DNA of 64,000 bases, taken from NCBI GenBank assembly GCA_049654165.1, contig JBASHR010000069.1, positions 64,513 to 128,512 on the forward strand. The letters run 5' to 3'. The translations under genes and the position numbers were made by a program. Below the pieces are notes generated by a model. The model made no database searches. It was given only the letters and a program-made list of their open reading frames with translations, and was not told the origin of the DNA. The stretch comes from Bacteroidales bacterium (GTDB taxonomy: Bacteria > Bacteroidota > Bacteroidia > Bacteroidales > JAAYJT01). This document shows positions 9,892-29,056 of the stretch, one piece after another; the first letter of the stretch is position 1; each line of letters opens with the position of its first letter.

Positions 9892-12393
9892 ATGTCATTA
9901 CTTCCGGGCAAATATGCCAATGTTTTGCTTCCTCTACCAATTCCGGGATTTTTCACTTACGCAATTCCTCCGGAAATGGAATCAACTCTGGTTGCCGGCG
10001 TAAGAGTAGTAGTACAATTTGGGAGAAAAAAGTTATACACTGCTCTGGTTCACAGCATTCATGAAACAAATCCGGGTTTATCCGTTAAAGAAATCCTGGT
10101 TCAGATGGATATTCTGCCCATCGTTAACATCAGGCAGTTTGTGTTCTGGGAATGGTTGTCAGAATATTATATGTGTTCGATGGGAGAAGTGATGAATGCG
10201 GCACTACCACCGGCATTGAAACTCAGCAGTGAAAGCCGCATAAGTCTTGATCCTGATTTTGATCATGATTACAGCAGGTTTAACGAGCGTGAATACAATG
10301 TAATTACAGTACTTGAGCAACAAGAAGAACTAAGCATTTCAGATGTTTCTCAAATTACTGGGCAGCAGCGGGTTATCCCATTGATCAATTCCCTTATTGA
10401 GAAAAAAGCTGTAAGTATTTACGAAGACATCATACAGCGTTATACTTCAAAAACCGAGAAATTCTATAATCTGGCTCAGATTTACCACGATGACGAAAAT
10501 GCACTTGCAGCAATAATGGAATACCTTGAAAGGCGCGCTCCGCGACAGTATGAAATATTGATCAATCTGTTGCATTATCTTGAATTAAGAAGCCACCCTG
10601 AAAATGGTATTCCAAAATCGTTACTGATCTCTGAAACTAAAAGCGCTGATGGGGCTTTGCGCTCATTGGTAGAAAAAGGGCTGCTTGAAGTAACAGAACA
10701 AAATATATCAAGGCTGGGTAAATATGAGGCTGTGCAGTCAGTTTCTGATATAGAACTTACTGAGCACCAGCAGGAAGCATATACAAAGATCAGGGAATAT
10801 TTCACAAACTCAAAACCTGTGCTTCTGCATGGAATAACTTCAAGTGGCAAAACCGAGATTTATATTAAACTTATTGAAGAAACTCTCAAAGCCGGATTTC
10901 AGGTTCTTTATCTGTTGCCGGAAATCGCACTAACAACTCAGATAATTTCACGTTTGCGAAAATTTTTCGGTGATGTTGTTGGTGTTTATCATTCACGATT
11001 TGGTGAATCCGAAAGAGCAGAAGTATGGAACAAGGTAGCTTCATGGCAGGCTTCTGCTGACGGGCAGGTTGTTTCCCATAGTGTCATACTTGGCGCTCGA
11101 TCTGCAATATTCCTGCCTTTCAGCAAACTGGGCCTGATAATTATTGATGAGGAACACGACACTTCTTACAAGCAATATGATCCGAGTCCACGCTATAATG
11201 CACGCGATGCTGCCATTTATCTGGCAAAACAGCATGATGCAAAGGTTTTATTAGGTTCGGCAACACCTGCCATTGAAAGCTATTTCAATGCAAAAACAGG
11301 AAAATACGGGCTGGTATCGCTTGCGAAACGCTATGGAGATATGACGCTGCCTGAGATTTCAGTTGTGAATCTCAAAGAAGCCACACGTCTGAAACAGATG
11401 AAAAGCCATTTTACACCTGCGTTGATCAATGAACTTGAAAAAGCTCTGGATCTCAACGAACAGGTTATTCTTTTTCAGAACCGGCGTGGTTTTGCCCTTC
11501 GTCTGGAATGTAATTTATGCCATTATGTTCCTCAATGCCGCCACTGTGATGTAACCCTTATCTACCATAAAAAAGAAAATCATCTGCGATGTCATTATTG
11601 CGGATATAAAGAGCCAATACCGCCGCATTGTCCGAAATGTCACAGTAAAGAGCTGAACCTCATTGGGTTTGGAACTGAAAAAATTGAAGAGGAACTATCC
11701 CTGATATATCCTGATATCCGTATTGCAAGGATGGATATTGATACTACCCGCAGCAAATTTGCACATCAAAAAATAATCACTGATTTTGAAACCGGCAAGA
11801 CTGATGTTCTCACCGGCACTCAAATGGTAAGCAAAGGACTTGATTTTGACAATGTCAGCCTTGTCGGTATTTTAAGTGCCGATAACATGATCAGTTTCCC
11901 TGATTTCCGCTCTTTTGAGCGCAGTTATCAGCTTATGGCGCAGGTAAGCGGGCGCGCGGGTCGAAAAAACAAACAGGGTAAAGTGATAATTCAAACCCGT
12001 AATCCAAAACATCCGGTTATTAATTTTGTAATTGAGAACAATTATGAAGGTATGTACCGGCATCAGATAGCGGAAAGGCAAATGTTTAATTACCCGCCGT
12101 TTAGTCGCCTTTTGAAGATTTCGTTGAAACATAAAGAGCCTGAACCATTAAACCATGCTGCGGATAAACTTGCCGGAAAACTTAAAAAAGCCTTCCCAAA
12201 GCAGGTACTTGGCCCTGAATATCCTGTGGTTTCGAGGATCAAAAATTATTTTATTAAGGAAATCCTTATAAAATTAAGTCGTGATAAAAATCTGGCGCGA
12301 AACAAAGAACATATCTCGAAGATAATTGATGACTTCATGAAAACCACATCAAATAAGCAAATCAGAGTAATTACTGATGTTGACCCGATGTAG
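9892..12393 (+). CDS. priA: Primosomal protein N' (replication restart helicase PriA)
   Basis: It has Walker A 'GITSSGKTE', a DEAH-like 'DEEHD' and the Cys-rich zinc-binding insert (CNLCHYVPQCRHCD...CHYCG...CPKC). Confidence 0.9.
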   Translation: MSLLPGKYANVLLPLPIPGFFTYAIPPEMESTLVAGVRVVVQFGRKKLYTALVHSIHETNPGLSVKEILVQMDILPIVNIRQFVFWEWLSEYYMCSMGEVMNAALPPALKLSSESRISLDPDFDHDYSRFNEREYNVITVLEQQEELSISDVSQITGQQRVIPLINSLIEKKAVSIYEDIIQRYTSKTEKFYNLAQIYHDDENALAAIMEYLERRAPRQYEILINLLHYLELRSHPENGIPKSLLISETKSADGALRSLVEKGLLEVTEQNISRLGKYEAVQSVSDIELTEHQQEAYTKIREYFTNSKPVLLHGITSSGKTEIYIKLIEETLKAGFQVLYLLPEIALTTQIISRLRKFFGDVVGVYHSRFGESERAEVWNKVASWQASADGQVVSHSVILGARSAIFLPFSKLGLIIIDEEHDTSYKQYDPSPRYNARDAAIYLAKQHDAKVLLGSATPAIESYFNAKTGKYGLVSLAKRYGDMTLPEISVVNLKEATRLKQMKSHFTPALINELEKALDLNEQVILFQNRRGFALRLECNLCHYVPQCRHCDVTLIYHKKENHLRCHYCGYKEPIPPHCPKCHSKELNLIGFGTEKIEEELSLIYPDIRIARMDIDTTRSKFAHQKIITDFETGKTDVLTGTQMVSKGLDFDNVSLVGILSADNMISFPDFRSFERSYQLMAQVSGRAGRKNKQGKVIIQTRNPKHPVINFVIENNYEGMYRHQIAERQMFNYPPFSRLLKISLKHKEPEPLNHAADKLAGKLKKAFPKQVLGPEYPVVSRIKNYFIKEILIKLSRDKNLARNKEHISKIIDDFMKTTSNKQIRVITDVDPM

Positions 12394-20182: not shown

Positions 20183-20247
20183 TCCTTTTTAACCTATATA
20201 TTTAAAACTGACATGGGAAACCGGGAAGTATAAACCGGCAGCTTAGC

Positions 20248-20353
20248 AAAAGGACAGTTGACCTTTTACACAGCCCGATTGATCGTTTGGTAGATAAAAA
20301 AACAGAAATAAATAAAATCGGTAAAAAGTTATAACTTTGTACGGGTATTTATT
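20248..20353 (+). repeat. Repeated promoter-bearing module, copy A (51-nt conserved 5' block + TAACTTTG core)
   Basis: aaaggacagttgaccttttacacaGcccGattgatcgtttggTagataaaa, then an A/T spacer, then ataactttgtAcgggtatttatt. The 5' block matches copy B at 48 of 51 positions. Confidence 0.85.
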
Positions 20354-20399
20354 TGTGCAAGTATTTATAAGTTATGGGGTATAGTGAAAACAGAAATCT

Positions 20400-21215
20400 A
20401 TGACATTACATGAAGCAATAAAAAAGGTTTTAAAGGAAAATGGAAGGCCTTTAAAGCCAATTGAAATAGCATCAATCCTGAATGATAGCAAAATCTATCA
20501 AAAAGGTGATAAGAGTAGAATTAAATCATCTCAGATTTCAGCTCGAGTAAATAAGTATCCATCATGTTTCTTCAAAGAAAATGGGTTAATCTATTTGAAT
20601 AATTGGGACTCATCATTAAAAAAAACAAATGAAATTATGCCAAAACATACTATAAAAATAAGAGTTGATTCGAAAGTTACTGATGGAGATATTGAAGAAA
20701 AACTTTTAGCAGCAGGAAACTTTCGACAATATAATGACTTAGATTCCATAACTTTATCTAAAAATGGTTTTTATTGTTTGAGACTTAAGGAAAACTCAAA
20801 ACTACCAGATAGATACCAGCTGATTCTAGATAAACGTAAGTTTAAATATTTATACATTGGAAAAGCTGAAGGACAAAATCTCGGAGAGAGATTAGACCAA
20901 GAAATTGAACATAAAGGTCCAGGAACTTTTTTTAGAAGTATCGGTTGTGTATTAGAATATTTGCCAATTAAAGGTCATTTAAAAGGACATTCAAATCAAA
21001 ATAATTACAAGTTTTCAACTACAGACACAGCGGAAATTGTGGAATGGTTAATTTCTAATATTGAAATTAGCATTGTTGAGTACAACAGTAGCTTTGAAAT
21101 TGAGAAAGAATTTATCAATAAGTATTGTCCCTTATTGAATTATACTCATAACCCAATGAAATTGCAAGAATTGAAAGAAGATAAAGACAATTGTCGAAAA
21201 ATTGCAAGAGGATAA
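20400..21215 (+). CDS. HARE-HTH domain / GIY-YIG-like nuclease fusion protein
   Basis: The N-terminus 'TLHEAIKKVLKENGRPLKPIEIASIL' is HARE-HTH-like. The C-terminus has the GIY-YIG pattern 'GFYCL...YLYIGKA...LGERL...EKEFINKYCPLLN'. Confidence 0.6.
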   Translation: MTLHEAIKKVLKENGRPLKPIEIASILNDSKIYQKGDKSRIKSSQISARVNKYPSCFFKENGLIYLNNWDSSLKKTNEIMPKHTIKIRVDSKVTDGDIEEKLLAAGNFRQYNDLDSITLSKNGFYCLRLKENSKLPDRYQLILDKRKFKYLYIGKAEGQNLGERLDQEIEHKGPGTFFRSIGCVLEYLPIKGHLKGHSNQNNYKFSTTDTAEIVEWLISNIEISIVEYNSSFEIEKEFINKYCPLLNYTHNPMKLQELKEDKDNCRKIARG

Positions 21216-21449
21216 AGAAATACATGTGATAACAAAGTGTAGTAACAATAAGGGTTTCAAAGGTAAATTAAGCCTCCTATATTACTCAAACTTCGATGGT
21301 GGTTAACAATTTTGCAGCCCGTAATCCCTTTCTTTTGCTACACTCAACCGTAACAATCAAGCCTAAAAAAAACAGCGACATAATGAAAATTGACAAGAAA
21401 AAATATAAAGACAGAACAAAAAGCCAAATCAAACGAAATCCGACAACAT

Positions 21450-21480
21450 TTTGTTGATCGGAAAAAATATACTACTTTTG
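21450..21480 (+). promoter_or_regulatory. Candidate Bacteroidota promoter (-33 TTTG, 19-nt spacer, -7 TACTTTTG)
   Basis: TTTG is at 21450-21453 and TACTTTTG at 21473-21480. This would give a leader of about 270 nt in front of the ATG at 21755. Confidence 0.5.
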
Positions 21481-21568
21481 ATTTTGAATTAATTAAAACG
21501 AATTTTATGACATAAGAAACCTTAATTTAAAAATATAGAAGCGTTAGCTTTTATTCTGAGATTAGAAA

Positions 21569-21702
21569 ACTACCACTTTTCAAACGCATCAGGAATAACA
21601 AGTGAAACGCTCACGCCATGGCGTGGGCTTAACTTATTTGATGCGTGGGTGCGTGGTAGTACCTCTGATCTGAATATAGTTACAGACCCACGCTTCTTTT
21701 TT
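21569..21702 (+). promoter_or_regulatory. GC-rich structured leader element with an intrinsic terminator (candidate riboregulator/attenuator or small RNA)
   Basis: Nested helices: ACTACCAC (21569-76) with GTGGTAGT (21653-60), and ACGCATCA (21584-91) with TGATGCGT (21639-46). A central hairpin spans 21609-21628 (CACGCCATGGCGTG core). A competing helix pairs GCGTGGGT (21643-50) with ACCCACGC (21686-93), followed by TTCTTTTTT. Confidence 0.5.
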
Positions 21703-21754
21703 ATACTAACCGTCATAGTTGGGTCTGATGTGGCAATCTAAAAACACAATTTTT

Positions 21755-22474
21755 ATGTTTAGCAAATCATTTTTTAAGACAGCCCTTATTGCGGGGCTAA
21801 CGGTGGCAATGGCACAAGGTGCATTTGCACAAAAAACTGCTGATGAGTTAAAAGCAGAAAGAGAAGTATTAAAGTCAGAAATGAACTCAAAAGAAGCAAA
21901 AAAATTAGAGAAAGTTCTCGAAAAAATTGCACCTATTGGTGGCACAATGGCAGATTTTGTAACAACAGTGTTAAATCCTTCATTAGCATCAGTTCCAGAA
22001 ATTCAAAGGAAAGCTGTTCCTTCGGTTGCAAAACTCGTTGGTAATGAACCTGCCAGAATCGTAAATAAACCTGCTGCAACAAGGCTTAACTCTGTTGATG
22101 GGCTTGTAGATGCAGGCACAACATTGCTTGGTGTTGTAGTTTCAACCAATGCCGTGTTGTCAAAGTACAAAATCGCGATCACTGAAAGTAAAGATGGCGA
22201 AGTTGATATTACACAATACAAAGCAAATTTGGACGATTACATTGCTATTCTTCCAATGCTGGTGCAAGCAGACATTGATGCTACAAAAGCAGTTGAAAAA
22301 ATCAAATATGCTCAAGCCGATCTCAAAGGATTGAATCCTATACAGGCAGCTCCAACTATTAAAGCGTCTAATTGGGCTATTGACGCAGTAAATGTCAGTG
22401 TGTGGAAAATTGCAGAAAACACCAAATTACTGCAGAATCTTATCAACAGTATTAAAGTAGCAGGTAATTTGTAA
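21755..22474 (+). CDS. Exported all-helical protein of unknown function (operon gene 1)
   Basis: The signal peptide 'MFSKSFFKTALIAGLTVAMAQGAFAQ' is followed by a coiled, Lys/Glu-rich N-terminus and the central hydrophobic segment 'GTTLLGVVVSTNAVL'. I trimmed the start from the track's 21719. Confidence 0.6.
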   Translation: MFSKSFFKTALIAGLTVAMAQGAFAQKTADELKAEREVLKSEMNSKEAKKLEKVLEKIAPIGGTMADFVTTVLNPSLASVPEIQRKAVPSVAKLVGNEPARIVNKPAATRLNSVDGLVDAGTTLLGVVVSTNAVLSKYKIAITESKDGEVDITQYKANLDDYIAILPMLVQADIDATKAVEKIKYAQADLKGLNPIQAAPTIKASNWAIDAVNVSVWKIAENTKLLQNLINSIKVAGNL

Positions 22475-22475
22475 T

Positions 22476-23294
22476 ATGTTGATTATGAAAAGATCTACAG
22501 TAATCATATTATTGCTTATGGTTAGTCTTTACGGTTGCCCGCAAGCTGATAGTAAACCAGTAATTGTAGTTAATAGATTTTCTTCAGAAGTGGATAATCC
22601 AAGTTTTACAACTTCTGTTCAGGAAAAAGTTTCTCAAATTGTTGTAAATTCAAAACGTTTTACGGTTAGGATGAGTGATGAAGAAGCAAAAGACGAAGTT
22701 GAAACAAGGAAATCTGAAATTTACCTTGATAATAGTGAGAATCTTGCCGATTTGAAATTGTCGGCATATCAATTCCGTATTATCGGACATTTGATAAAAG
22801 CGAATATCTACAGAATGAAAAACCCTGATGGAAGCGTAAACGGATTTAAAGCAAGTTGTGCTTTTACGCTGAAAGTCAATGATGTGGAAAGAGGGCAAAC
22901 TACTGAAGCTGAAAGTTTTCAAACCGAAGTCAGTCCGTTGGCGGCATCAAAAGAACAGGCAATAAACCAAGCATTGCAATCTATAGAGCCAAAATTGAAG
23001 TCTTATTTTATAAAAACTTTTCCATTAACAACAAAAATTGTAAAGTTTTTGGATAATAAAAAATGTTTGATTTCAGGCGGAAAAAGTTTTGGGTTCAGAG
23101 AGGGCGATAAATTGATGGTTGAACGTATTGAAATGCTTAACGGAAAGCCCTATCCTATCGAAATAGGCGAATTGAAAATTATAAAAATTGCAGGCGATGA
23201 CTTTTCAGAATGCAGTGTTTCAAAAGGTAGTAAAGAAATTTTGGCAGCATTTAACACAGCTGAAAAGTTGAATTGTAAATTAATTGTAAAATAG
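22476..23294 (+). CDS. Lipoprotein of unknown function with a CsgG/LpoB-like N-terminal pattern and an SH3-like C-terminus (operon gene 2)
   Basis: It has the lipobox 'SLYGC'. 'KPVIVVNRFSSEV...VNSKRFTVR' resembles the first strand-helix-strand of CsgG/LpoB-type lipoproteins. An alternative start is at 22488. Confidence 0.6.
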   Translation: MLIMKRSTVIILLLMVSLYGCPQADSKPVIVVNRFSSEVDNPSFTTSVQEKVSQIVVNSKRFTVRMSDEEAKDEVETRKSEIYLDNSENLADLKLSAYQFRIIGHLIKANIYRMKNPDGSVNGFKASCAFTLKVNDVERGQTTEAESFQTEVSPLAASKEQAINQALQSIEPKLKSYFIKTFPLTTKIVKFLDNKKCLISGGKSFGFREGDKLMVERIEMLNGKPYPIEIGELKIIKIAGDDFSECSVSKGSKEILAAFNTAEKLNCKLIVK

Positions 23295-23300
23295 TTAAAT

Positions 23301-23762
23301 ATGAAACAATTAGTAAAATTATTTTTAGTCGGAGTTTCCATTATTTTGTTTGTAAATTCTTGTCGAACAATTTATCCTTCAGCTGAAGTCAATTATTTGT
23401 CGGGCGATGAGCAAACGCTTACCGTTCGTTCCGTAGGGGTTGACATTGATAAAGAAAAAGCAATTATCAATGCTGAACAAAAAGTGTTTGATGTTCTGTT
23501 CTTTAGAGGCTTACCCGAATCAAAACAAAAAATACCGTTAATCAGCAGCAACGAGCATGAAGAAATATCAAATCACAAGAATTATTTTGATAGTTTTTAC
23601 GATGGAAAACGACATAAAACATTTGTAATGTCGTCAATTCCTGTAAGTAACGTAAAAGCTAGGGGTAGACAAAAAATAGTTACGCTCGACGTAAAAGTTA
23701 ATTTGTCGGCACTGCGGCACGATTTGGAAACCTTCGGGGTTATCAGAAAATTTGGTTATTAA
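23301..23762 (+). CDS. Small lipoprotein of unknown function (operon gene 3)
   Basis: It has the lipobox 'FVNSC' and is 153 aa. Confidence 0.6.
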   Translation: MKQLVKLFLVGVSIILFVNSCRTIYPSAEVNYLSGDEQTLTVRSVGVDIDKEKAIINAEQKVFDVLFFRGLPESKQKIPLISSNEHEEISNHKNYFDSFYDGKRHKTFVMSSIPVSNVKARGRQKIVTLDVKVNLSALRHDLETFGVIRKFGY

Positions 23763-23783
23763 CCCAATAAATAGAGGAAATTT

Positions 23784-24674
23784 ATGAGAAAAATACAAAT
23801 AGTAACATTTTTATTGCTTGCGGTAGGTTCTGTTCTCGGACAAAACGTAGCCACAAACAGCGATGGACAAGTTGTAACTGTTCAGCCCAAAATAATGGTC
23901 ATTCCATTTACTAAAGAAAGAGAAGATATCAGGACAATTTTGGAGGAGGATGTTAACCGAAGAATTGCAATTGCTAAAATAAAAGAAGGTTTTGACAGTC
24001 GAGGTTTCACAACCGTTGATTTTGTTGCCAGACTCAAAATTGCAAAAGACAATAATGTTTTCACTTCCGATAATCAGACGGATATTAAAACGCAAATTGT
24101 AGAAATGTCGGGAGCTGATGTGTACGTACAATCCGAAGTAATTATAGAAAAAGGTCAATCGGGTAATTCGGTAAAGCTGATTCTTGCTGCCTATGAAATT
24201 TCTACAGGTAATTCGCTGTCGAACAAAGTAGGCGAAAGCGGACGTTTTTACACAGACGATTTCAATAAGTTGGCATCAAAAGCTGTAGAAAGCTGCATAG
24301 AGGATTTTTTGAACATCATGCAAACGAAATTTACGGACATTGTGAATAACGGAAAATCTATTTTGATTGACATCAGCTTCGATCCTTCTTCGTTGTTTAC
24401 GATGTCGTCGGAAGTTGGAAGTGATGGTTTACCGCTTTCCGACCAAATAGAAATGTGGATGAGCGAAAATGCTCTTAAAGGGAATTATCATATTCAGGGA
24501 ACTACGAATTTAAAAATGTTGTTCGATGATGTGCGTATTCCGCTCAAAGACAGCAATGGAAATAATTATAATCCCAATAAATTCGGACTAGAAATGTATA
24601 AATTCTTCAGAACGTTAGGAATTTCAATAGGCAGAGACATTAAAGGCAATACTATTTATATAACAATAAAATAG
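23784..24674 (+). CDS. Exported protein of unknown function (operon gene 4)
   Basis: It has a signal peptide ('LLLAVGSVLGQ'), and 'PKIMVIPFTKE' directly follows the mature N-terminus. It may belong to a Bacteroidota-only DUF family (unverified). Confidence 0.6.
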   Translation: MRKIQIVTFLLLAVGSVLGQNVATNSDGQVVTVQPKIMVIPFTKEREDIRTILEEDVNRRIAIAKIKEGFDSRGFTTVDFVARLKIAKDNNVFTSDNQTDIKTQIVEMSGADVYVQSEVIIEKGQSGNSVKLILAAYEISTGNSLSNKVGESGRFYTDDFNKLASKAVESCIEDFLNIMQTKFTDIVNNGKSILIDISFDPSSLFTMSSEVGSDGLPLSDQIEMWMSENALKGNYHIQGTTNLKMLFDDVRIPLKDSNGNNYNPNKFGLEMYKFFRTLGISIGRDIKGNTIYITIK

Positions 24675-24681
24675 AGACAAC

Positions 24682-25626
24682 ATGAAAACAATTTATTTTA
24701 TAGTAATCGCAATGATTTTGGCTTCTACTTCAGTTGCCCAATCAATAAGCGATTTGGGAAAAATTACCCTATCGGTTGTAATGCCTGAAAATGTTGATGG
24801 TTTGGATATTTCGCAACTTTCTAAACTGGAGACTAAAATCTCTCAAATTGTTACCGTATCTGGTTTAGCAGCATCAGGTTATAATAATAATTTTGTCATT
24901 TACCCCAAGTTTGCAATTTATGAAAATAATATAGTTGAAGGAGGTATGCAAAAAATTACTGTTTTTACAGCAGAATTAAGTTTGTTCATTAAACAAGTTG
25001 AAAATAATTTATTATTCTCTACAATTAGTAAACAACTCAAAGGAAGTGGAAGCAATAAAGAACAGGCAATTACAAACGCTATCTCTAAAATTCCAATAAA
25101 CGATACCGAATTTAAAATCTTTATTGAAACAGGAAAATCTGAAATTATCCGGTACTATGAAACAAAGTGCGAGGACATTATTAAAAAATCTGACAGTTAC
25201 GTTAAAATGCAGCAGTATGACCAAGCATTGGGATTATTAATGACTGTTCCTGAAGAAGTATCAAGTTGCTACAATCAGATTCAGGGTAAAGCAATTGAGG
25301 CATATAAAGCTTATCAAACACAAAAATGTGCCGAGTTAATTCAAAAAGCAAAGACCACGCTTGCTGGTAATGATTATGCTGGGGCATTAAACATTTTATC
25401 AGATATTGATCCTTCCGCTTCGTGCTTCAATGAAGCACAAGCATTAGCAAAAACAGCCGAAACAAAAGTTGATGCCGAAGAAAAAAAACAATGGGATTTT
25501 CAGATGAAACAGTATAGTGATGCTGTTAGTCTGGAAAAACAGCGTATTAATGCAATAAAAGAAATAGCGGTTTCTTATTACAAAAGTCAACCTACGACAG
25601 TCAATTATAATTATATCATAAGGTAG
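24682..25626 (+). CDS. Exported protein of unknown function with a Cys-containing helical-repeat C-terminus (operon gene 5)
   Basis: The signal peptide is 'IAMILASTSVAQS'. 'ITLSVVMPENV' starts the mature part. The C-terminal half is helical and TPR-like, with five Cys residues. Confidence 0.6.
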   Translation: MKTIYFIVIAMILASTSVAQSISDLGKITLSVVMPENVDGLDISQLSKLETKISQIVTVSGLAASGYNNNFVIYPKFAIYENNIVEGGMQKITVFTAELSLFIKQVENNLLFSTISKQLKGSGSNKEQAITNAISKIPINDTEFKIFIETGKSEIIRYYETKCEDIIKKSDSYVKMQQYDQALGLLMTVPEEVSSCYNQIQGKAIEAYKAYQTQKCAELIQKAKTTLAGNDYAGALNILSDIDPSASCFNEAQALAKTAETKVDAEEKKQWDFQMKQYSDAVSLEKQRINAIKEIAVSYYKSQPTTVNYNYIIR

Positions 25627-25731
25627 TTTCTCCCTTAAACATTTATGCTATTTTTGTCCAAAACACAGAATATTTGCATTGTGAAAACTTTTTGACAACA
25701 TATTATCATACATATTATAAAAATTAAAACG

Positions 25732-25832
25732 AAAGGACAGTTGACCTTTTACACATCCCTATTGATCGTTTGGCAGATAAAATTAAAAAGACAAAACCAA
25801 CAAAAATTGATAACTTTGTTCGGGTATTTATT
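25732..25832 (+). repeat. Repeated promoter-bearing module, copy B
   Basis: aaaggacagttgaccttttacacaTcccTattgatcgtttggCagataaaa, then a spacer, then ataactttgtTcgggtatttatt. Confidence 0.85.
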
Positions 25833-25873
25833 GGTTACTGGTCAGGTTACTGCAAACTCTAAAACACAAGATA

Positions 25874-26089
25874 ATGGCAAAATACACTTTTACCCAATCG
25901 CAGTTTGACGAAATTAGCAACTTGTTAAAAATACGAAAATATCAAAGTCGGGACGAACAAAAATCTACCCAAACTAAAATCAGAAGAAAAGGTTTTAAGA
26001 TTTCAGACCATTTTACCGGGTTTAGCGATATTGACTTTAAAAAACTTTTAGACAGAGGCGAAATTGTAATTATAGACAATCCCATATAA
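25874..26089 (+). CDS. Small basic protein of unknown function (71 aa), first gene of a three-gene cassette
   Basis: The ORF starts 55 nt downstream of the TAACTTTG box. It is Lys/Arg-rich in the centre ('KSTQTKIRRKGFKISD'). Confidence 0.45.
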   Translation: MAKYTFTQSQFDEISNLLKIRKYQSRDEQKSTQTKIRRKGFKISDHFTGFSDIDFKKLLDRGEIVIIDNPI

Positions 26090-26110
26090 TAATATTTTAA
26101 AAACAGATTT

Positions 26111-26605
26111 ATGAACTTCAAAGACATTGAACAAATTAAGAAAGCAGGTTTTACAGGCTTCAAGACAATGAAAGAATTGTTTGCAGACAGTTCAGCTATT
26201 CCAAAAATCAAAGGCGTTTATTTGGTTCTCAACCCGACAAAAAAAGGCGGGTTCTTGACTGTTGGAACAGGCGGTCACTTTAAAGGGAAAAATCCAAATG
26301 TTTCAGTTTCGGAACTTGAAGCAAATTGGGTAGATGACACGATTGTAGTTTACATCGGCAAAGCAGGGAAAGACGGTAGTAGTGCGACACTTCAATCACG
26401 CTTGCGACAGTATTTTGGTTTCGGACAAGGTAAAAATGTAGGACATTGGGGTGGCAGATTTATTTGGCAACTTAAAAATTCAGCAGATCTTGTAGTTTGT
26501 TGGAAAGCATTACCGACAACCGACCCAAGAACAGTTGAAGCCGACCTAATTCAAGACTTCGTTTCAAAATTTTCTCAGCGACCATTCGCAAATTTAGCTA
26601 ACTAA
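26111..26605 (+). CDS. GIY-YIG-like nuclease domain protein
   Basis: It shows the GIY-YIG fold pattern: 'KGVYLV' (GIY), 'VVYIGKA' (YIG), 'LQSRLRQY' (Arg helix) and 'EADLIQDF...PFAN' (Glu/Asn). Confidence 0.6.
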   Translation: MNFKDIEQIKKAGFTGFKTMKELFADSSAIPKIKGVYLVLNPTKKGGFLTVGTGGHFKGKNPNVSVSELEANWVDDTIVVYIGKAGKDGSSATLQSRLRQYFGFGQGKNVGHWGGRFIWQLKNSADLVVCWKALPTTDPRTVEADLIQDFVSKFSQRPFANLAN

Positions 26606-27294
26606 TGAACCCACGACAATTTGAAGAATTAGTTTGTGAGTATTTTCGCAAACAAGGTTACGAGGCCAAAACAACTTCATACAGTGGCGACTATGGTATT
26701 GACGTTTTCGCAACAAAAGGAAAAGAGAAAATAGCAGTTCAAGTAAATATGTATGGCGATTCAACAAGAAAAATAAATCGTCAAATGGTAATGGAATTGT
26801 ACGGAGCAAAAGATTATTTTGATTGCACCAAAGCAATTATCGCAACTGACGGAGCATTTTTGCCCGATGCAATTTCTGTTGCAGAGAAATTGAAAATTGA
26901 AATTTTGTATTTCAACGAATTTCAAACACAACTTCCACAAAATCAATCACTAAAAAGCCGCAAGACAGATAAAACTTTTGAACAAATTTGGGAAGACTAC
27001 ATAATTCCACTTCAAGGAAAAACACTAACGAGAAGTAACGGTAAAACAAATAAAATAATCAAGGTAGATTGGAGTGGAATTGAACGGCTGACATCAAACG
27101 GTAATAAAGGAAAAATCAAAATTGAAATATTCAAACAAGCCGTAAACAAACTTTTAACTAATGGTTCAATTAGCCGTGATTACATCAATCAAAACTACGT
27201 CGGACGAGCATCTTCGGGAATTGTGCTAATTTTATCACAAGTTCCGTTCTTTACACTAACTGACAGACCAACAGGATTGAAATATGAAATGTAA
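26605..27294 (+). CDS. Mrr-like (PD-(D/E)xK) restriction endonuclease domain protein with an uncharacterised C-terminal domain
   Basis: 'FEELVCEYFRKQGY', 'GDYGIDVFA' and 'IAVQVNMY' match the Mrr_cat layout. The start ATG overlaps the upstream stop by 1 nt (TAATG). Confidence 0.65.
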   Translation: MNPRQFEELVCEYFRKQGYEAKTTSYSGDYGIDVFATKGKEKIAVQVNMYGDSTRKINRQMVMELYGAKDYFDCTKAIIATDGAFLPDAISVAEKLKIEILYFNEFQTQLPQNQSLKSRKTDKTFEQIWEDYIIPLQGKTLTRSNGKTNKIIKVDWSGIERLTSNGNKGKIKIEIFKQAVNKLLTNGSISRDYINQNYVGRASSGIVLILSQVPFFTLTDRPTGLKYEM

Positions 27295-27306
27295 CGATAA
27301 AAAGCT

Positions 27307-27329
27307 ATAACTTTGTGCGGGTATTTATT
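27307..27329 (+). repeat. Repeated promoter module, copy C (3' core only)
   Basis: ataactttgtGcgggtatttatt is identical to copies A and B except at one position. Confidence 0.8.
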
Positions 27330-27395
27330 AGTTAATGACAAATTTAAGATTACGACTTGCAATAACTCAAATTTAATAACCAAAAAAATGTAATT

Positions 27396-27650
27396 ATGTC
27401 AGAAATTATTCGCAACAGGACAATCAGACCTTCAAGTAGGCTTGAAAGTTCAAAGAGTTACAAAATTGACACTAAAACCGTTTCGAGTGGCGACACTTTA
27501 ATTGTAAACATTGACCACGAATCAAAACCATTTAAGAAAACGTTCACATTCCGAGGTTCGGACGTTGCACATCTTAACAGTATTCACTTTAAGGTGCATG
27601 ATTTTGGAACTCATATTGAAATTTCTTGGAGTGGAGCAAAGCCAATCTGA
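27396..27650 (+). CDS. Hypothetical protein (84 aa)
   Basis: The ORF starts 81 nt downstream of the third TAACTTTG core. I recognise no motif. Confidence 0.4.
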   Translation: MSEIIRNRTIRPSSRLESSKSYKIDTKTVSSGDTLIVNIDHESKPFKKTFTFRGSDVAHLNSIHFKVHDFGTHIEISWSGAKPI

Positions 27651-27982
27651 ATAGCCGAAACATATTTGGTCAAGCAATTAGAACTTAAAGCACAGGTATT
27701 ATCAAAACCTACTGTTAAATCATTAATATTAGTCCACTCAAAAAAATCATTTGCGCCGTTGGCGAAAGACGATATTGAGATTTTAATCTTAGACACAATG
27801 CCTGGTGTATATTCCGAACTAAACTGCCCCCCCTATTCCGGTGATGCTGACCCCCATCATTCGATATCAGTTTTTTAGGGCTAATCTCAGTCTATAACAA
27901 AGAACAACGAGAGGATAAAATTATACCGATTGGAAAAATATAACAGACCAATTTTATCTCTGCTTGATTGTTCTATATATTT

Positions 27983-28025
27983 AAACCATCGGAATTGGCG
28001 ATTGTAAATACAAATCGTATAATAT
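27983..28025 (+). repeat. Dispersed intergenic repeat, copy 3 (shorter)
   Basis: aaaccatcggaattggcgattgtaaatacaaatcgtataatat. Confidence 0.6.
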
Positions 28026-28138
28026 GAGTGTTGTTTTATTGGCAATAAGCTATAAAATATCCCTTTTTTCAAAAAAGAGCGATTTTAATGAAACAAAATC
28101 ATTCAAAATTTCGTTCATATAATAAAATATATTATCAA

Positions 28139-28597
28139 ATGATAGAAGAAAAAGGAATAACAACAGACCATTATAAGAAATTCACTGAAATTCTCGGAAA
28201 GGAAAATATCCCTGTTGAAATTGAAAGCCCGTTCGATTTCATACATAATGCCAATGAAGGAATAAATGTAGGTGTGATATTGAATTTCAGCAGATATTTC
28301 AACCTGTCAAAAGAGCTTGTTGCTCAATTTCTGGATATTTCTGAACCGACTCTGTATCGTTGGTTTAAAGCGAACAAAAATTTAGAAAGGAATTTCTCGG
28401 TTAAGCTATTTGAAATTGTTGACCTGTTTATTTACGGTGAGGAAGTGTTTGGCGACCGTGATACTTTCTTCAAATGGTTGGGTCTGCCTAATCAAGCTAT
28501 GGGGGGCATGGAGCCAAAAGAGCTGATTGAGATACCCGGTGGTGTTTCAAAGATCAAAGACCTTTTGGGAAGAATTGAGCACGGTGTTTACAGTTAA
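28139..28597 (+). CDS. Xre-like antitoxin with a C-terminal DUF2384-type (MbcA/ParS) domain
   Basis: 'ISEPTLYRWFK' is HTH-like and 'FKWLGLPNQAMGGMEPKELIE...GVSKIKDLLGRIEHGVY' is the typical C-terminus. The ORF track starts at 28088. The gene lies directly upstream of a RES gene. Confidence 0.75.
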   Translation: MIEEKGITTDHYKKFTEILGKENIPVEIESPFDFIHNANEGINVGVILNFSRYFNLSKELVAQFLDISEPTLYRWFKANKNLERNFSVKLFEIVDLFIYGEEVFGDRDTFFKWLGLPNQAMGGMEPKELIEIPGGVSKIKDLLGRIEHGVYS

Positions 28598-28603
28598 TGA
28601 ATT

Positions 28604-29056
28604 ATGCTTGTTTACAGGATCACAGCAAGGAAATATGCAGGCGACCTGAGTGGCTATGGAGCAGCCATGTACGGCGGACGTTGGAATAAAAAAGGAATAC
28701 CGGTTCTTTATACAGGAGAAAATAAAGAAATAGCTCTTCTGGAGGTAATTGTAAACACCCCGCCATTGTTAATTCCGGAATTGGATATCCTTACTATTGA
28801 AATCTCAGATGATTCAATAACCACAATTGATATAGAGCAGTTGCCTAAAAACTGGAGTTCATATCCTGCTCCTGTTATTTTAACTGATATTGGAGAAAAC
28901 TGGATTAAGGAAGGCAAAACCATATCCCTTAAAGTGCCGAGCTGTATTATACATACCTCTCACAATTATATTTTAAATTGCAGGCATCCCGAATATTCAA
29001 GGGCTAAACTAATTGAGCGCAGGCATTTCAGGTTTGACCCGAGATTAAAAAAGTAA
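28604..29056 (+). CDS. RES domain toxin (NAD+-degrading RES family)
   Basis: 'YRITARKY...GGRWNKKGIPVLYTGENKEIALLE' carries the R-E-S signature. It is 150 aa and paired with the Xre/DUF2384 antitoxin. Confidence 0.8.
   Translation: MLVYRITARKYAGDLSGYGAAMYGGRWNKKGIPVLYTGENKEIALLEVIVNTPPLLIPELDILTIEISDDSITTIDIEQLPKNWSSYPAPVILTDIGENWIKEGKTISLKVPSCIIHTSHNYILNCRHPEYSRAKLIERRHFRFDPRLKK

Follow-up and report, generated by a model that had tools for sequence, protein, structure and literature searches.

A five-gene DUF6175 operon of Bacteroidota is carried as a mobile cassette and may encode a periplasmic complex at the outer membrane

Introduction

A group of bacterial envelope proteins of common fold lines the outer membrane from within, where its members serve as plugs or build rings. 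CsgG, PelC, PqiC and the FlgT-containing flagellar ring are its ring-forming members, LptE is the plug of LptD, and LpoB is a monomeric activator. PqiC forms an octameric ring on PqiB, and PelC is a dodecameric lipoprotein ring on the TPR-bearing porin PelB. The small Neisseria GNA1162 operon is conserved and encodes exported or lipidated proteins of this fold, including a CsgG-like lipoprotein; we know of no report of cassette mobility for it. LptE, PqiC, PelC, CsgG and FlgT were described in a 2026 paper in the Journal of Biological Chemistry as outer-membrane lipoproteins with one core alpha/beta domain (PMC13631591). Here we describe an operon of five genes, g1 to g5, from a Bacteroidales bacterium, three products of which are related to this group. 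The operon occupies positions 21755-25626 on the forward (+) strand of a 64,000-nucleotide (nt) stretch of contig JBASHR010000069.1 (positions 64,513 to 128,512; assembly GCA_049654165.1). The whole stretch is referred to below as the window.

An initial annotation, made from the letters of the window and its reading frames, described the operon as five exported proteins and lipoproteins that might be parts of one envelope complex, lying in a nuclease and toxin island. Two kinds of mobile array are relevant to this setting. The cassettes of chromosomal integrons are reported to be stores of anti-phage systems (bioRxiv 10.1101/2024.07.02.601686). The rAID-1 arrays of Bacteroidales combine an XerD-family recombinase with low-GC genes, repetitive intergenic sequences and homologues of type VI secretion system (T6SS) immunity genes (bioRxiv 10.1101/471110). 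The product of g4 belongs to DUF6175, a large family hitherto without an assigned function. A full-text literature search found no paper naming DUF6175, and no description of the five-gene module was found.

Results

Mobility of the operon

The operon starts with g1 (21755-22474), which encodes a lysine- and glutamate-rich exported orphan that is helical by sequence prediction and is the most variable member. It is followed by g2 (22476-23294), encoding an exported protein with a CsgG/LpoB-fold domain and a FlgT_C-like C-terminal domain, and by g3 (23301-23762), encoding a small conserved lipoprotein that is also an orphan. The most conserved member is the DUF6175 protein encoded by g4 (23784-24674). 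The last gene, g5 (24682-25626), encodes an LptE/CsgG-fold N-domain joined to a long-helix, TPR-like C-domain with four conserved Cys. The five open reading frames (ORFs) are packed on the + strand with gaps of 1, 6, 21 and 7 nt, as initially annotated, and their order recurred in related loci. There were no terminator-like sites on the + strand within the operon. A sigma-70 promoter scan of the operon was uninformative, as the model is not applicable to Bacteroidota.

Relatives were collected by a locus scan with one genome per species, which gave 79 loci (cited below by L numbers, and individual proteins by P numbers). The comparison revealed that the five genes move together, as a discrete cassette within an array of the integron-like kind. 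An identical g4 protein (P0011) was present in 144 assembly blocks, with at least four unrelated contexts. A 5.64-kb unit, which contains the leader, g1 to g5, a Bro-N gene and a 113-aa ORF, was 99.5-100% identical in four unrelated arrays that shared nothing beyond its ends. With a slash marking the boundary, the left end of the unit read /CGTTAC.. and /CGTTACAAGCAAGCC..., and the right end ..AATCCGTT/ and ...CCAATCCGTT/. The junctions were exact at CCG/TT, i.e. at the G/TT of the core site. An imperfect palindrome of about 126 nt with the arrangement TAAC-arm ... arm-GTTA formed the 3' end of the unit, and the modules beside it ended in the same way; this is the architecture of integron attC sites.

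A scan for such attC-like palindromes found 35 sites in 21 of the 79 loci, compared with 2 in shuffled sequence; its criteria had been relaxed after a strict version missed known sites. The lengths of the sites peaked sharply at 124-130 nt. In at least six loci (L008, L010, L014, L020, L025 and L033) the site began 15-35 nt past the g5 stop. Because the sites directly follow the g5 stop, the minimal cassette comprises the leader, the five genes and an attC-like site. In L005 and L093-L096, the site followed a Bro-N extension rather than g5 directly. The cassette of the window is closed by a diverged attC-like site on the + strand at 25650-25770, with the putative G/TT between positions 25768 and 25769. 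This element could be aligned with the intact 124-130-nt sites after g5 in L008, L010, L014, L020 and L025, and its 3' half is a repeat located at 25732-25795.

The base composition also set the cassette apart, its GC content being lower than that of the flanks in 43 of 53 loci. In L005, which comes from a metagenome-assembled genome, an 11-kb island with a GC content of about 0.33 lies in a host of about 0.58. The island holds the five-gene cassette, an AAA_15/21 ATPase cassette and an N6_N4 methyltransferase cassette in this order, each closed by an attC-like site. The Bro-N gene and a small ORF (103-113 aa) were located inside the five-gene cassette in L093-L096, L005 (11872-12717) and L006, and the window has neither. 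Proteins with a Bro-N domain characteristically occur in phages and mobile elements.

Comparison with described arrays showed both likeness and difference. The module shares with integron cassettes its nature as a discrete unit, the imperfect palindromes of about 126 nt, the AAC/GTT ends and the G/TT junction. Both integron and rAID-1 arrays resemble the present ones in their same-strand, low-GC organization and defence-type content, and rAID-1 also in its repeated intergenic elements. However, the module measures 4.4-5.6 kb, holds five to seven genes and brings its own leader, whereas typical integron cassettes are far smaller and carry one gene. Unlike in rAID-1, no T6SS immunity gene was recognised by Pfam, although no search was aimed at immunity content. 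Canonical tyrosine-recombinase box II motifs (HWLRHS...LLGHKSSKTTEIY) were seen in a single ORF of the window and the 79 loci, at 3985-5388 of L006. This 467-aa ORF shares the orientation of the array, whose first attC-like site is about 2.2 kb downstream of it, and its motifs make it a candidate for the array recombinase.

The operon also differed in presence between strains of one species. The same-species strain GCA_964550455.1 (L088, CAZJZG010000026.1) lacks positions 20357-27807 of the window, while the flanks are 98.5% and 95.7% identical. In this strain the segment is replaced by 0.7 kb with a different 195-aa ORF, the left boundary being at 20356/20357. The GIY-YIG gene, the five operon genes and the Mrr gene are all missing, and the Xre/RES pair is kept. 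The accessory status proposed in the initial annotation was thereby borne out, with the addition that the operon is itself an integron-like cassette.

The individual genes of the cassette have had different histories. Between the window and L005, g5 showed 87% DNA identity and 73% identity at fourfold-degenerate sites (24682-25626 against 10887-11828). For g4 of the same two loci, the DNA identity was 72%, the fourfold-site identity 32% and the protein identity 78%; against L001, the g4 protein identity was 87% with a fourfold-site identity of 38%. Because the fourfold-site identities differ in this way, g4 is anciently conserved and strongly constrained, and g5 has been exchanged. The similarity of g5 to that of L005, beside a g4 at synonymous saturation, points to recent recombinational exchange of a single gene within the cassette. 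The g1 gene, which falls into two length classes, was exchanged like g5.

Structural features of the five proteins

All five products carry Sec-type signal peptides, which direct export across the inner membrane and were kept across each family, in full agreement with the initial annotation. The two lipobox cysteines that it had reported, in LYGC of g2 and VNSC of g3, were both found in the window; only that of g3 proved to be conserved. A lipobox was present in at least 27 of 36 g3 relatives, and a lipobox-like match in just 6 of 43 g2 relatives, which makes the LYGC of the window g2 peculiar to its own lineage. A signal-peptidase-I site ending in Q was found in nearly all g2 and g4 relatives (..YSQ or ..AQ for g2, ..GQ or AQ for g4) and in all g1 and g5 relatives, the predicted g1 cleavage site being ..AFA/Q. 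The lipobox-like regular expression matched 4 of 38 g4 relatives, inside the signal peptide, and no g5 relative. Going by these signals, g3 is the sole conserved lipoprotein of the module. The absence of an enzymatic domain, noted earlier, held in all searches: no enzyme, ATPase or transporter domain was found in the five proteins by Pfam, NCBIfam, PADLOC or PDB sequence searches. Single-protein sequence searches against PDB chains gave no relative for any of g1-g5.

The alpha/beta domain common to LptE, PqiC, PelC, CsgG, LpoB and FlgT is carried by g2, g4 and g5. For these three proteins, a CsgG/LpoB-type fold had been suggested on the basis of a short hydrophobic strand at the start of the mature part. 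The strand is real: in the g4 and g5 models it is the first one of the alpha/beta domain (E36-41 and E30-32, respectively). The fold itself was recovered through Pfam and profile searches for g2 and through AlphaFold and Foldseek for g4 and g5. Profile comparison related the N-domains of g4 and g2 at 95%, and those of g5 and g2 weakly, at 75%. The Foldseek lists of g4 and g5 reproduced the LptE/PqiC/PelC/CsgG/FlgT set of the published grouping (PMC13631591).

The window g2 gave no match to Pfam CsgG (PF03783) at E<=1. Among its 43 relatives, 35 matched Pfam LpoB and 34 matched CsgG (best 6.6e-14), and 4 matched FlgT_M together with FlgT_C. The g2 family profile found only CsgG, LpoB and FlgT in the PDB, with CsgG at E 0.003. 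The alignment of this profile with CsgG contained an 8-residue deletion in the first membrane hairpin region, and it stopped at CsgG residue 179, before the second hairpin.

The g4 protein matched Pfam DUF6175 (PF19672) over profile positions 2-292 of 293, with 269.2 bits (cut-off 23) and E 4.9e-80. Clustering divides the family into 1,884 groups when 90% identity is required and into 639 at 50%. An AlphaFold2 model of g4, built with 100 diverse relatives, had a predicted local distance difference test (pLDDT) score of 92.5 and a predicted template modelling (pTM) score of 0.82. Foldseek placed FlgT in the Vibrio LPHT ring at the top (6e-6; 8z5n, 3w1e), and also returned GNA1162, CT253, CsgG, PelC, HpaA, LpoB and TolB. 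All these matches were confined to residues ~35-190. The C-domain (191-296), which has a beta-alpha-beta-beta-alpha-beta-beta order and many invariant residues, was without a Foldseek match.

The AlphaFold2 model of g5 had a pLDDT of 80.8. Its N-domain matched LptE-like lipoproteins, CsgG, HpaA, PelC and PqiC-like DUF330 proteins, the LptE-like and PqiC-like ones best. The C-terminal half, annotated earlier as a Cys-containing helical region, indeed folds into three long helices, and four of its Cys (C163, C196, C216 and C248) are near-invariant. Weak ARM_TT21/TPR matches were found in 25 of 34 g5 relatives, and in the PDB the g5 family profile yielded weak TPR matches only. In the models of both g4 and g5, only the sheet of the domain was seen.

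The remaining two proteins are orphans. The g1 protein gave no Pfam or PDB match, either alone or as a family, and its 147 relatives are all unnamed. It contains no repeats and has no amyloid-like composition. Its central hydrophobic segment, highlighted in the initial annotation, did not hold up as a membrane feature: the Kyte-Doolittle value of 1.53 is below the transmembrane level, and the segment was not kept in relatives. The g3 family profile showed no Pfam or PDB relation, and g1 and g4 family profiles likewise had no match in the PDB. The possibility that g3 is an LPP20- or CsgG-fold protein was considered as well, and was unsupported by hhalign.

These folds link the module to several described systems. 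LptE and PqiC, the best structural matches of the g5 N-domain and members of the same fold group (PMC13631591), are core-genome lipoproteins with a defined transporter, whereas the module is accessory and has no linked transporter. LpoB, matched by most g2 relatives, is a core-genome outer-membrane lipoprotein that activates a penicillin-binding protein; in contrast, the g2 gene is strain-variable and horizontally moved, and its lipobox is unconserved. GNA1162 (DUF799) was among the best structural matches of g4, but no protein of the module matched the DUF799 or DUF4810 families of Pfam, and the number of genes and the host phylum differ. Curli, Pel, Lpt/Bam and gliding machinery were not matched with confidence, and the operon is not a core-genome cluster, consistent with the earlier failure to match it to a described system. 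Overall, the module does not belong to the curli, Pel, Lpo or flagellar systems, nor is it a part of the core Lpt or Bam machinery.

Conservation of the module

The 79 loci came from Bacteroidales, Flavobacteriales, Cytophagales, Sphingobacteriales, Chitinophagales and Saprospirales, with two more from Gemmatimonadaceae. Gene order was counted in 57 loci, those in which the available sequence reaches far enough to either side. The full order g1-g2-g3-g4-g5 was found in 30 of them and g2-g3-g4-g5 in 16 more, so that the order was conserved in 46 of 57. The arrangements g1-g2-g4-g5 and g3-g4-g5-g2 accounted for five and three loci. The five genes thus co-occur in a conserved order across six orders of Bacteroidota, and their flanks are unrelated. 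On clustering, the genes flanking the module were almost all singletons, which ruled out conserved neighbours as a clue to function.

Natural fusions joined adjacent members of the operon. In a subfamily of about 420 aa, the N-terminal 150 residues matched the g3 profile (hhalign 99.1%) and were followed by DUF6175, and P0138 (649 aa) is a fusion of g4 and g5. From these fusions, the tight spacing and the fixed order, we infer that g3, g4 and g5 contact each other. The idea that the five products are parts of one envelope complex gained support from the conserved order and the g3-g4 and g4-g5 fusions, and by these genomic signs they are probably parts of one periplasmic complex.

Some variants of the module carry additional domains. 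A caspase-like Peptidase_C14 domain replaces the g4 C-domain in P0230 (L087 2528-3868, in a g1-g2-g4N/C14 operon) and in L068, whereas P0263 has a Peptidase_M48-like domain joined to g4 on its N-terminal side. Long forms of g5 in L030, L032 and L079 have a weakly C14-like C-terminus (23-24% identity). The C14 and M48 variants suggest protease-armed versions of the module. A related operon from the human gut was seen in Bacteroides finegoldii (L086, NZ_OY725910.1, 93830-101055). It contains a g2 relative, a g3-g4 fusion, two LPP20-family (FlgP-family) lipoproteins and two unnamed proteins. The 'plasmid' record of L086 may be a chromosome fragment because dprA and other housekeeping genes are present on it.

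Organization of the surrounding island

The island at 20-29 kb of the window has a GC content of 0.31-0.37, compared with about 0.40 elsewhere. GIY-YIG and Mrr_cat nuclease genes and an Xre/RES toxin-antitoxin pair were found in it, in keeping with the AT-richer island and the neighbours described initially. The view that the operon sits inside a nuclease and toxin island stands only in part: the neighbours are as reported, but GIY-YIG, Mrr and RES belong to separate cassettes and were never co-conserved with the operon. In the 79 other loci, GIY-YIG, Mrr, Xre and RES never adjoined the module. Neighbouring cassettes there held other genes, such as Eco57I-type restriction-modification (RM), PDDEXK, ResIII helicase, Dam-type methyltransferase, NTase/HEPN and Band_7 genes in L093-L096, and SMC/ABC-like ATPases in relatives.

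The elements of the island all lie on the + strand. The array starts just past an Exo_endo_phos gene with an attC-like 3' half (20249-20295; putative G/TT between 20285 and 20286). This is 86% identical to the repeat 25732-25795, and has the GA.AGTT centre and ..CGTT end common to the attC-like sites after g5 in other loci. The first copy of a 51-nt leader repeat follows at 20306-20356 (ATAACTTTGTnCGGGTATTTATT), 44 nt upstream of the GIY-YIG gene. The repeat contains a Bacteroidetes -7-like TAnnTTTG and precedes three successive cassettes. The separate neighbouring cassette encodes a HARE-HTH and GIY-YIG nuclease (20400-21215; Pfam GIY_YIG_2 6e-29). It is closed by a degenerate attC-like palindrome (21230-21353; TAAC..arm...arm..CCGTAAC), and homologues of it are found at the junctions of L094, L096 and L005. 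The outer arms of this palindrome pair in the DNA fold, and the fold energy is no better than that of shuffles (z -0.09). The junction sequence ...CTCAACCGTAACAATCAAGCCTAAAAAAAACAGCGACATAATGAAAATTGACA, located at 21340-21395 in the window, is the same as in other arrays.

The 5' leader of the five-gene cassette (21351-21754) begins with a conserved cassette-start motif common to L005 and L093-L096. It is 78% identical to the leader of L005 (7500-8064), and the nucleotide identity of g1 in the same pair is just 52%. A small ORF of 24 codons within the leader (21383-21457) is a truncated copy of a 72-codon 'MKID...' frame, which is intact in L094-L096 and may be a coding sequence or an RNA/DNA element. 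The leader also contains a long hairpin (21584-21646), whose GC-rich inner stem, CTCACGCC-ATGG-CGTGGG, is conserved. In L005, L026, L054 and L055 the outer arms have other sequences yet keep their pairing. The hairpin was found upstream of g1 in just 5 of 39 loci, and it may act as an operator, as a small structured RNA or as the terminator of the element before it. No riboswitch or known RNA was matched in Rfam upstream of g1, the hairpin included.

Downstream of the operon, the second copy of the leader repeat (25785-25835) starts the next cassette, which holds genes for a 71-aa protein, a 164-aa protein and Mrr. The 164-aa protein (26111-26605) gave a chance-level GIY-YIG_2 match (E 0.19), and its gene ends where the Mrr gene starts (26605). 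The third copy (27282-27332) coincides with a strain breakpoint at 27303, from which other strains of the species (L081 and L083) diverge from the window, with DUF7255-like and 213-aa genes in place of an 84-aa cassette. Thus, two of the three leader repeats coincide with strain-to-strain breakpoints. The whole island, from the Exo_endo_phos gene to a carboxyltransferase gene (20183-29056), looks like an integron-like or rAID-like array without an integrase.

Discussion

We propose that the products of g1 to g5 assemble into a single hetero-oligomer, which would sit at the outer membrane and face the periplasm. The lipid of g3 would serve as the tether or anchor of the complex, g4 would be its invariant core, and g1 and g5 would be peripheral parts open to exchange. 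To judge by those members of the fold group that build rings, the complex may surround or underlie an outer-membrane component as a ring, collar or plug, and it would be neither an enzyme nor a powered transporter. It may provide accessory envelope protection against an incoming agent, such as an entering phage, contact-dependent or diffusible toxins, or foreign DNA. This role seems the most likely one because of the carriage on a cassette and the company that the cassette keeps; the conflict genes among the neighbours, together with the precedents of integrons and rAID-1, raise the prior for a protective role. For the composite of a hetero-oligomeric ring or collar at the outer membrane and accessory envelope protection, we estimate a probability of roughly 0.5. 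The structural half of the proposal is considerably more secure than the functional half.

Several observations weigh against this proposal. Defence genes did not stand out in a census of the 150 nearest flanking proteins of the 79 loci. The census was heterogeneous, with 136 Pfam families that included housekeeping ones (DNA polymerase I, GroEL), and no PADLOC or defence family occurred more than twice. Proteins with a type IX secretion system tail made up 8 of the 150, an excess that came partly from three related Flavobacterium loci. In PADLOC-DB 2.0, no match was found for g1, g2, g4 and g5, and g3 gave only a chance-level match to Cas6b (E 0.0025). The NCBIfam defence models did not match the five proteins, and no relative of the module was found in viral contigs; a Foldseek comparison with viral structures was uninformative. 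The single match in a plasmid collection resembled a chromosome fragment with housekeeping genes. Integron cassettes also carry many functions other than defence, and strong purifying selection on g4 is unusual for proteins in direct arms races. On the structural side, no gene for an outer-membrane partner was linked to the operon. The g3-g4 fusion proteins have no lipobox; since the g2 lipobox is also unconserved, tethering to the outer membrane is not universal. As to mobility, the ORF list, Pfam and a motif scan revealed no recombinase or integrase ORF in the window island, either of the IntI or of the XerD type, which is a difference from integrons. Two candidate ORFs beside the L005 island had no plasmid or integrase match.

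Four other explanations were considered. The complex could be specialised for anti-phage or anti-conjugation surface exclusion, as the initial annotation had suggested from the genomic context, blocking the passage of DNA or of a tail tube, or masking a receptor. The abundance of RM, toxin-antitoxin and nuclease genes in the arrays is in line with this idea, as are the presence and absence of the operon between strains of one species, the horizontal transfer and mosaicism of the peripheral g1 and g5, the Bro-N gene carried along in several units, and the known role of integron cassettes as reservoirs of defence systems (bioRxiv 10.1101/2024.07.02.601686). Nevertheless, PADLOC gave no match, no phage-borne homologue or counterpart was found, the conservation of g4 far exceeds what is usual for proteins that interact with phages, and the flanks are not dominated by defence genes. 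The exclusion proteins TraT, Llp and Cor are, moreover, single small proteins rather than five-part assemblies, and we consider so specific a role unlikely. Less probable again is a non-defensive accessory structure, either a periplasmic brace or disc comparable to FlgT, FlgO and FlgP, or an HpaA-like adhesion factor, which would aid robustness or attachment in particular habitats. The flagellar H-ring and outer disc are multi-protein periplasmic rings of this fold. In addition to the FlgT and HpaA matches of g4 and the FlgT_M and FlgT_C matches of g2 relatives, the B. finegoldii variant operon adds two LPP20 lipoproteins, and the very strong purifying selection on g4 would be expected of a lattice or ring subunit. 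However, there were no flagellar genes in the surveyed flanks, and g3 has no detectable relation to LPP20. To our knowledge, Bacteroidota have no flagella. Nothing in the cassette indicates surface exposure, and carriage in RM and toxin-antitoxin arrays with patchy presence among strains suits conflict functions better.

A curli- or Pel-type apparatus for export or assembly at the outer membrane would have g2, g4 and g5 as a channel or funnel, the g5 helices as a scaffold, and g1 or an unlinked polymer as cargo. CsgG and PelC were among the best structural and profile matches, PelC being a strong match to the N-domains of both g4 and g5. Like CsgG, the module is proposed to be oligomeric, periplasmic near the outer membrane and independent of ATP, and like PelBC it combines this fold with helical-repeat scaffolding, the TPR-like helices of g5 recalling PelB. 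The exported g1 is also without another assigned role. The differences are more telling, and we regard an exporter as improbable. The g5 C-domain has three long helices with disulfide-type Cys instead of canonical TPR arrays. CsgG is one homo-nonamer, whereas the module has three different paralogues and moves on a cassette. The lipid anchor needed by CsgG and PelC is unconserved in g2 and absent from g4 and g5. The module offers no evidence of the two membrane hairpins of CsgG, given the deletion and early end of the g2 alignment, and g1, g3, g5 and their families had no CsgA-, CsgB-, CsgE- or CsgF-type Pfam match. The cassette lacks a beta-barrel porin, an amyloid subunit, a glycosyltransferase and an inner-membrane component, and no such Pel-type or polysaccharide synthesis gene adjoins it. 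The composition of g1 described above is not that of an amyloid cargo. Marginally more improbable still is a scaffolding role in which the module would hold a periplasmic protease in place or control it, with the protease domain lost in the window or supplied in trans. This reading draws on the C14 and M48 fusions to g4, on the weakly C14-like long g5 proteins, and on the presence of Peptidase C14 and M48 twice each in the flank census. The fusions are rare variants, though, the similarity of the long g5 forms to C14 is weak, and the majority of loci have the canonical five-gene form without a protease domain.

The analysis gives DUF6175 a place in a five-part module, with folds assigned, a likely anchor in g3, a conserved core in g4, and exchangeable g1 and g5. 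What is new here is that the module spreads as a multi-gene, attC-bounded cassette in the restriction, nuclease and toxin-antitoxin arrays of Bacteroidota. In its furthest form, which we put forward only tentatively, the DUF6175 module might be a new class of envelope immunity machine. Three CsgG/LptE-fold paralogues would form a ring or collar in the periplasm that passively stops an incoming agent at the outer membrane, such as a phage genome during delivery or a T6SS or bacteriocin payload. The machine would spread through Bacteroidota as an unusually large multi-gene cassette of the integron type, and have variants armed with periplasmic caspase-like or M48 proteases. Several cultured strains carry the module, which makes it directly testable; among them are Flavobacterium collinsii CECT 7796, F. 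bizetiae CIP 105534, Sphingobacterium lumbrici, Kaistella rhinocerotis, Epilithonimonas xixisoli, Taibaiella soli and Cyclobacterium xiamenense. If envelope protection is its true role, bacterial immunity would gain a periplasmic layer that is structural and needs no energy, and the cargo known from integron-like arrays would become broader. If it is not, the module would still represent a new use of the ring-forming LptE/CsgG/PelC fold.

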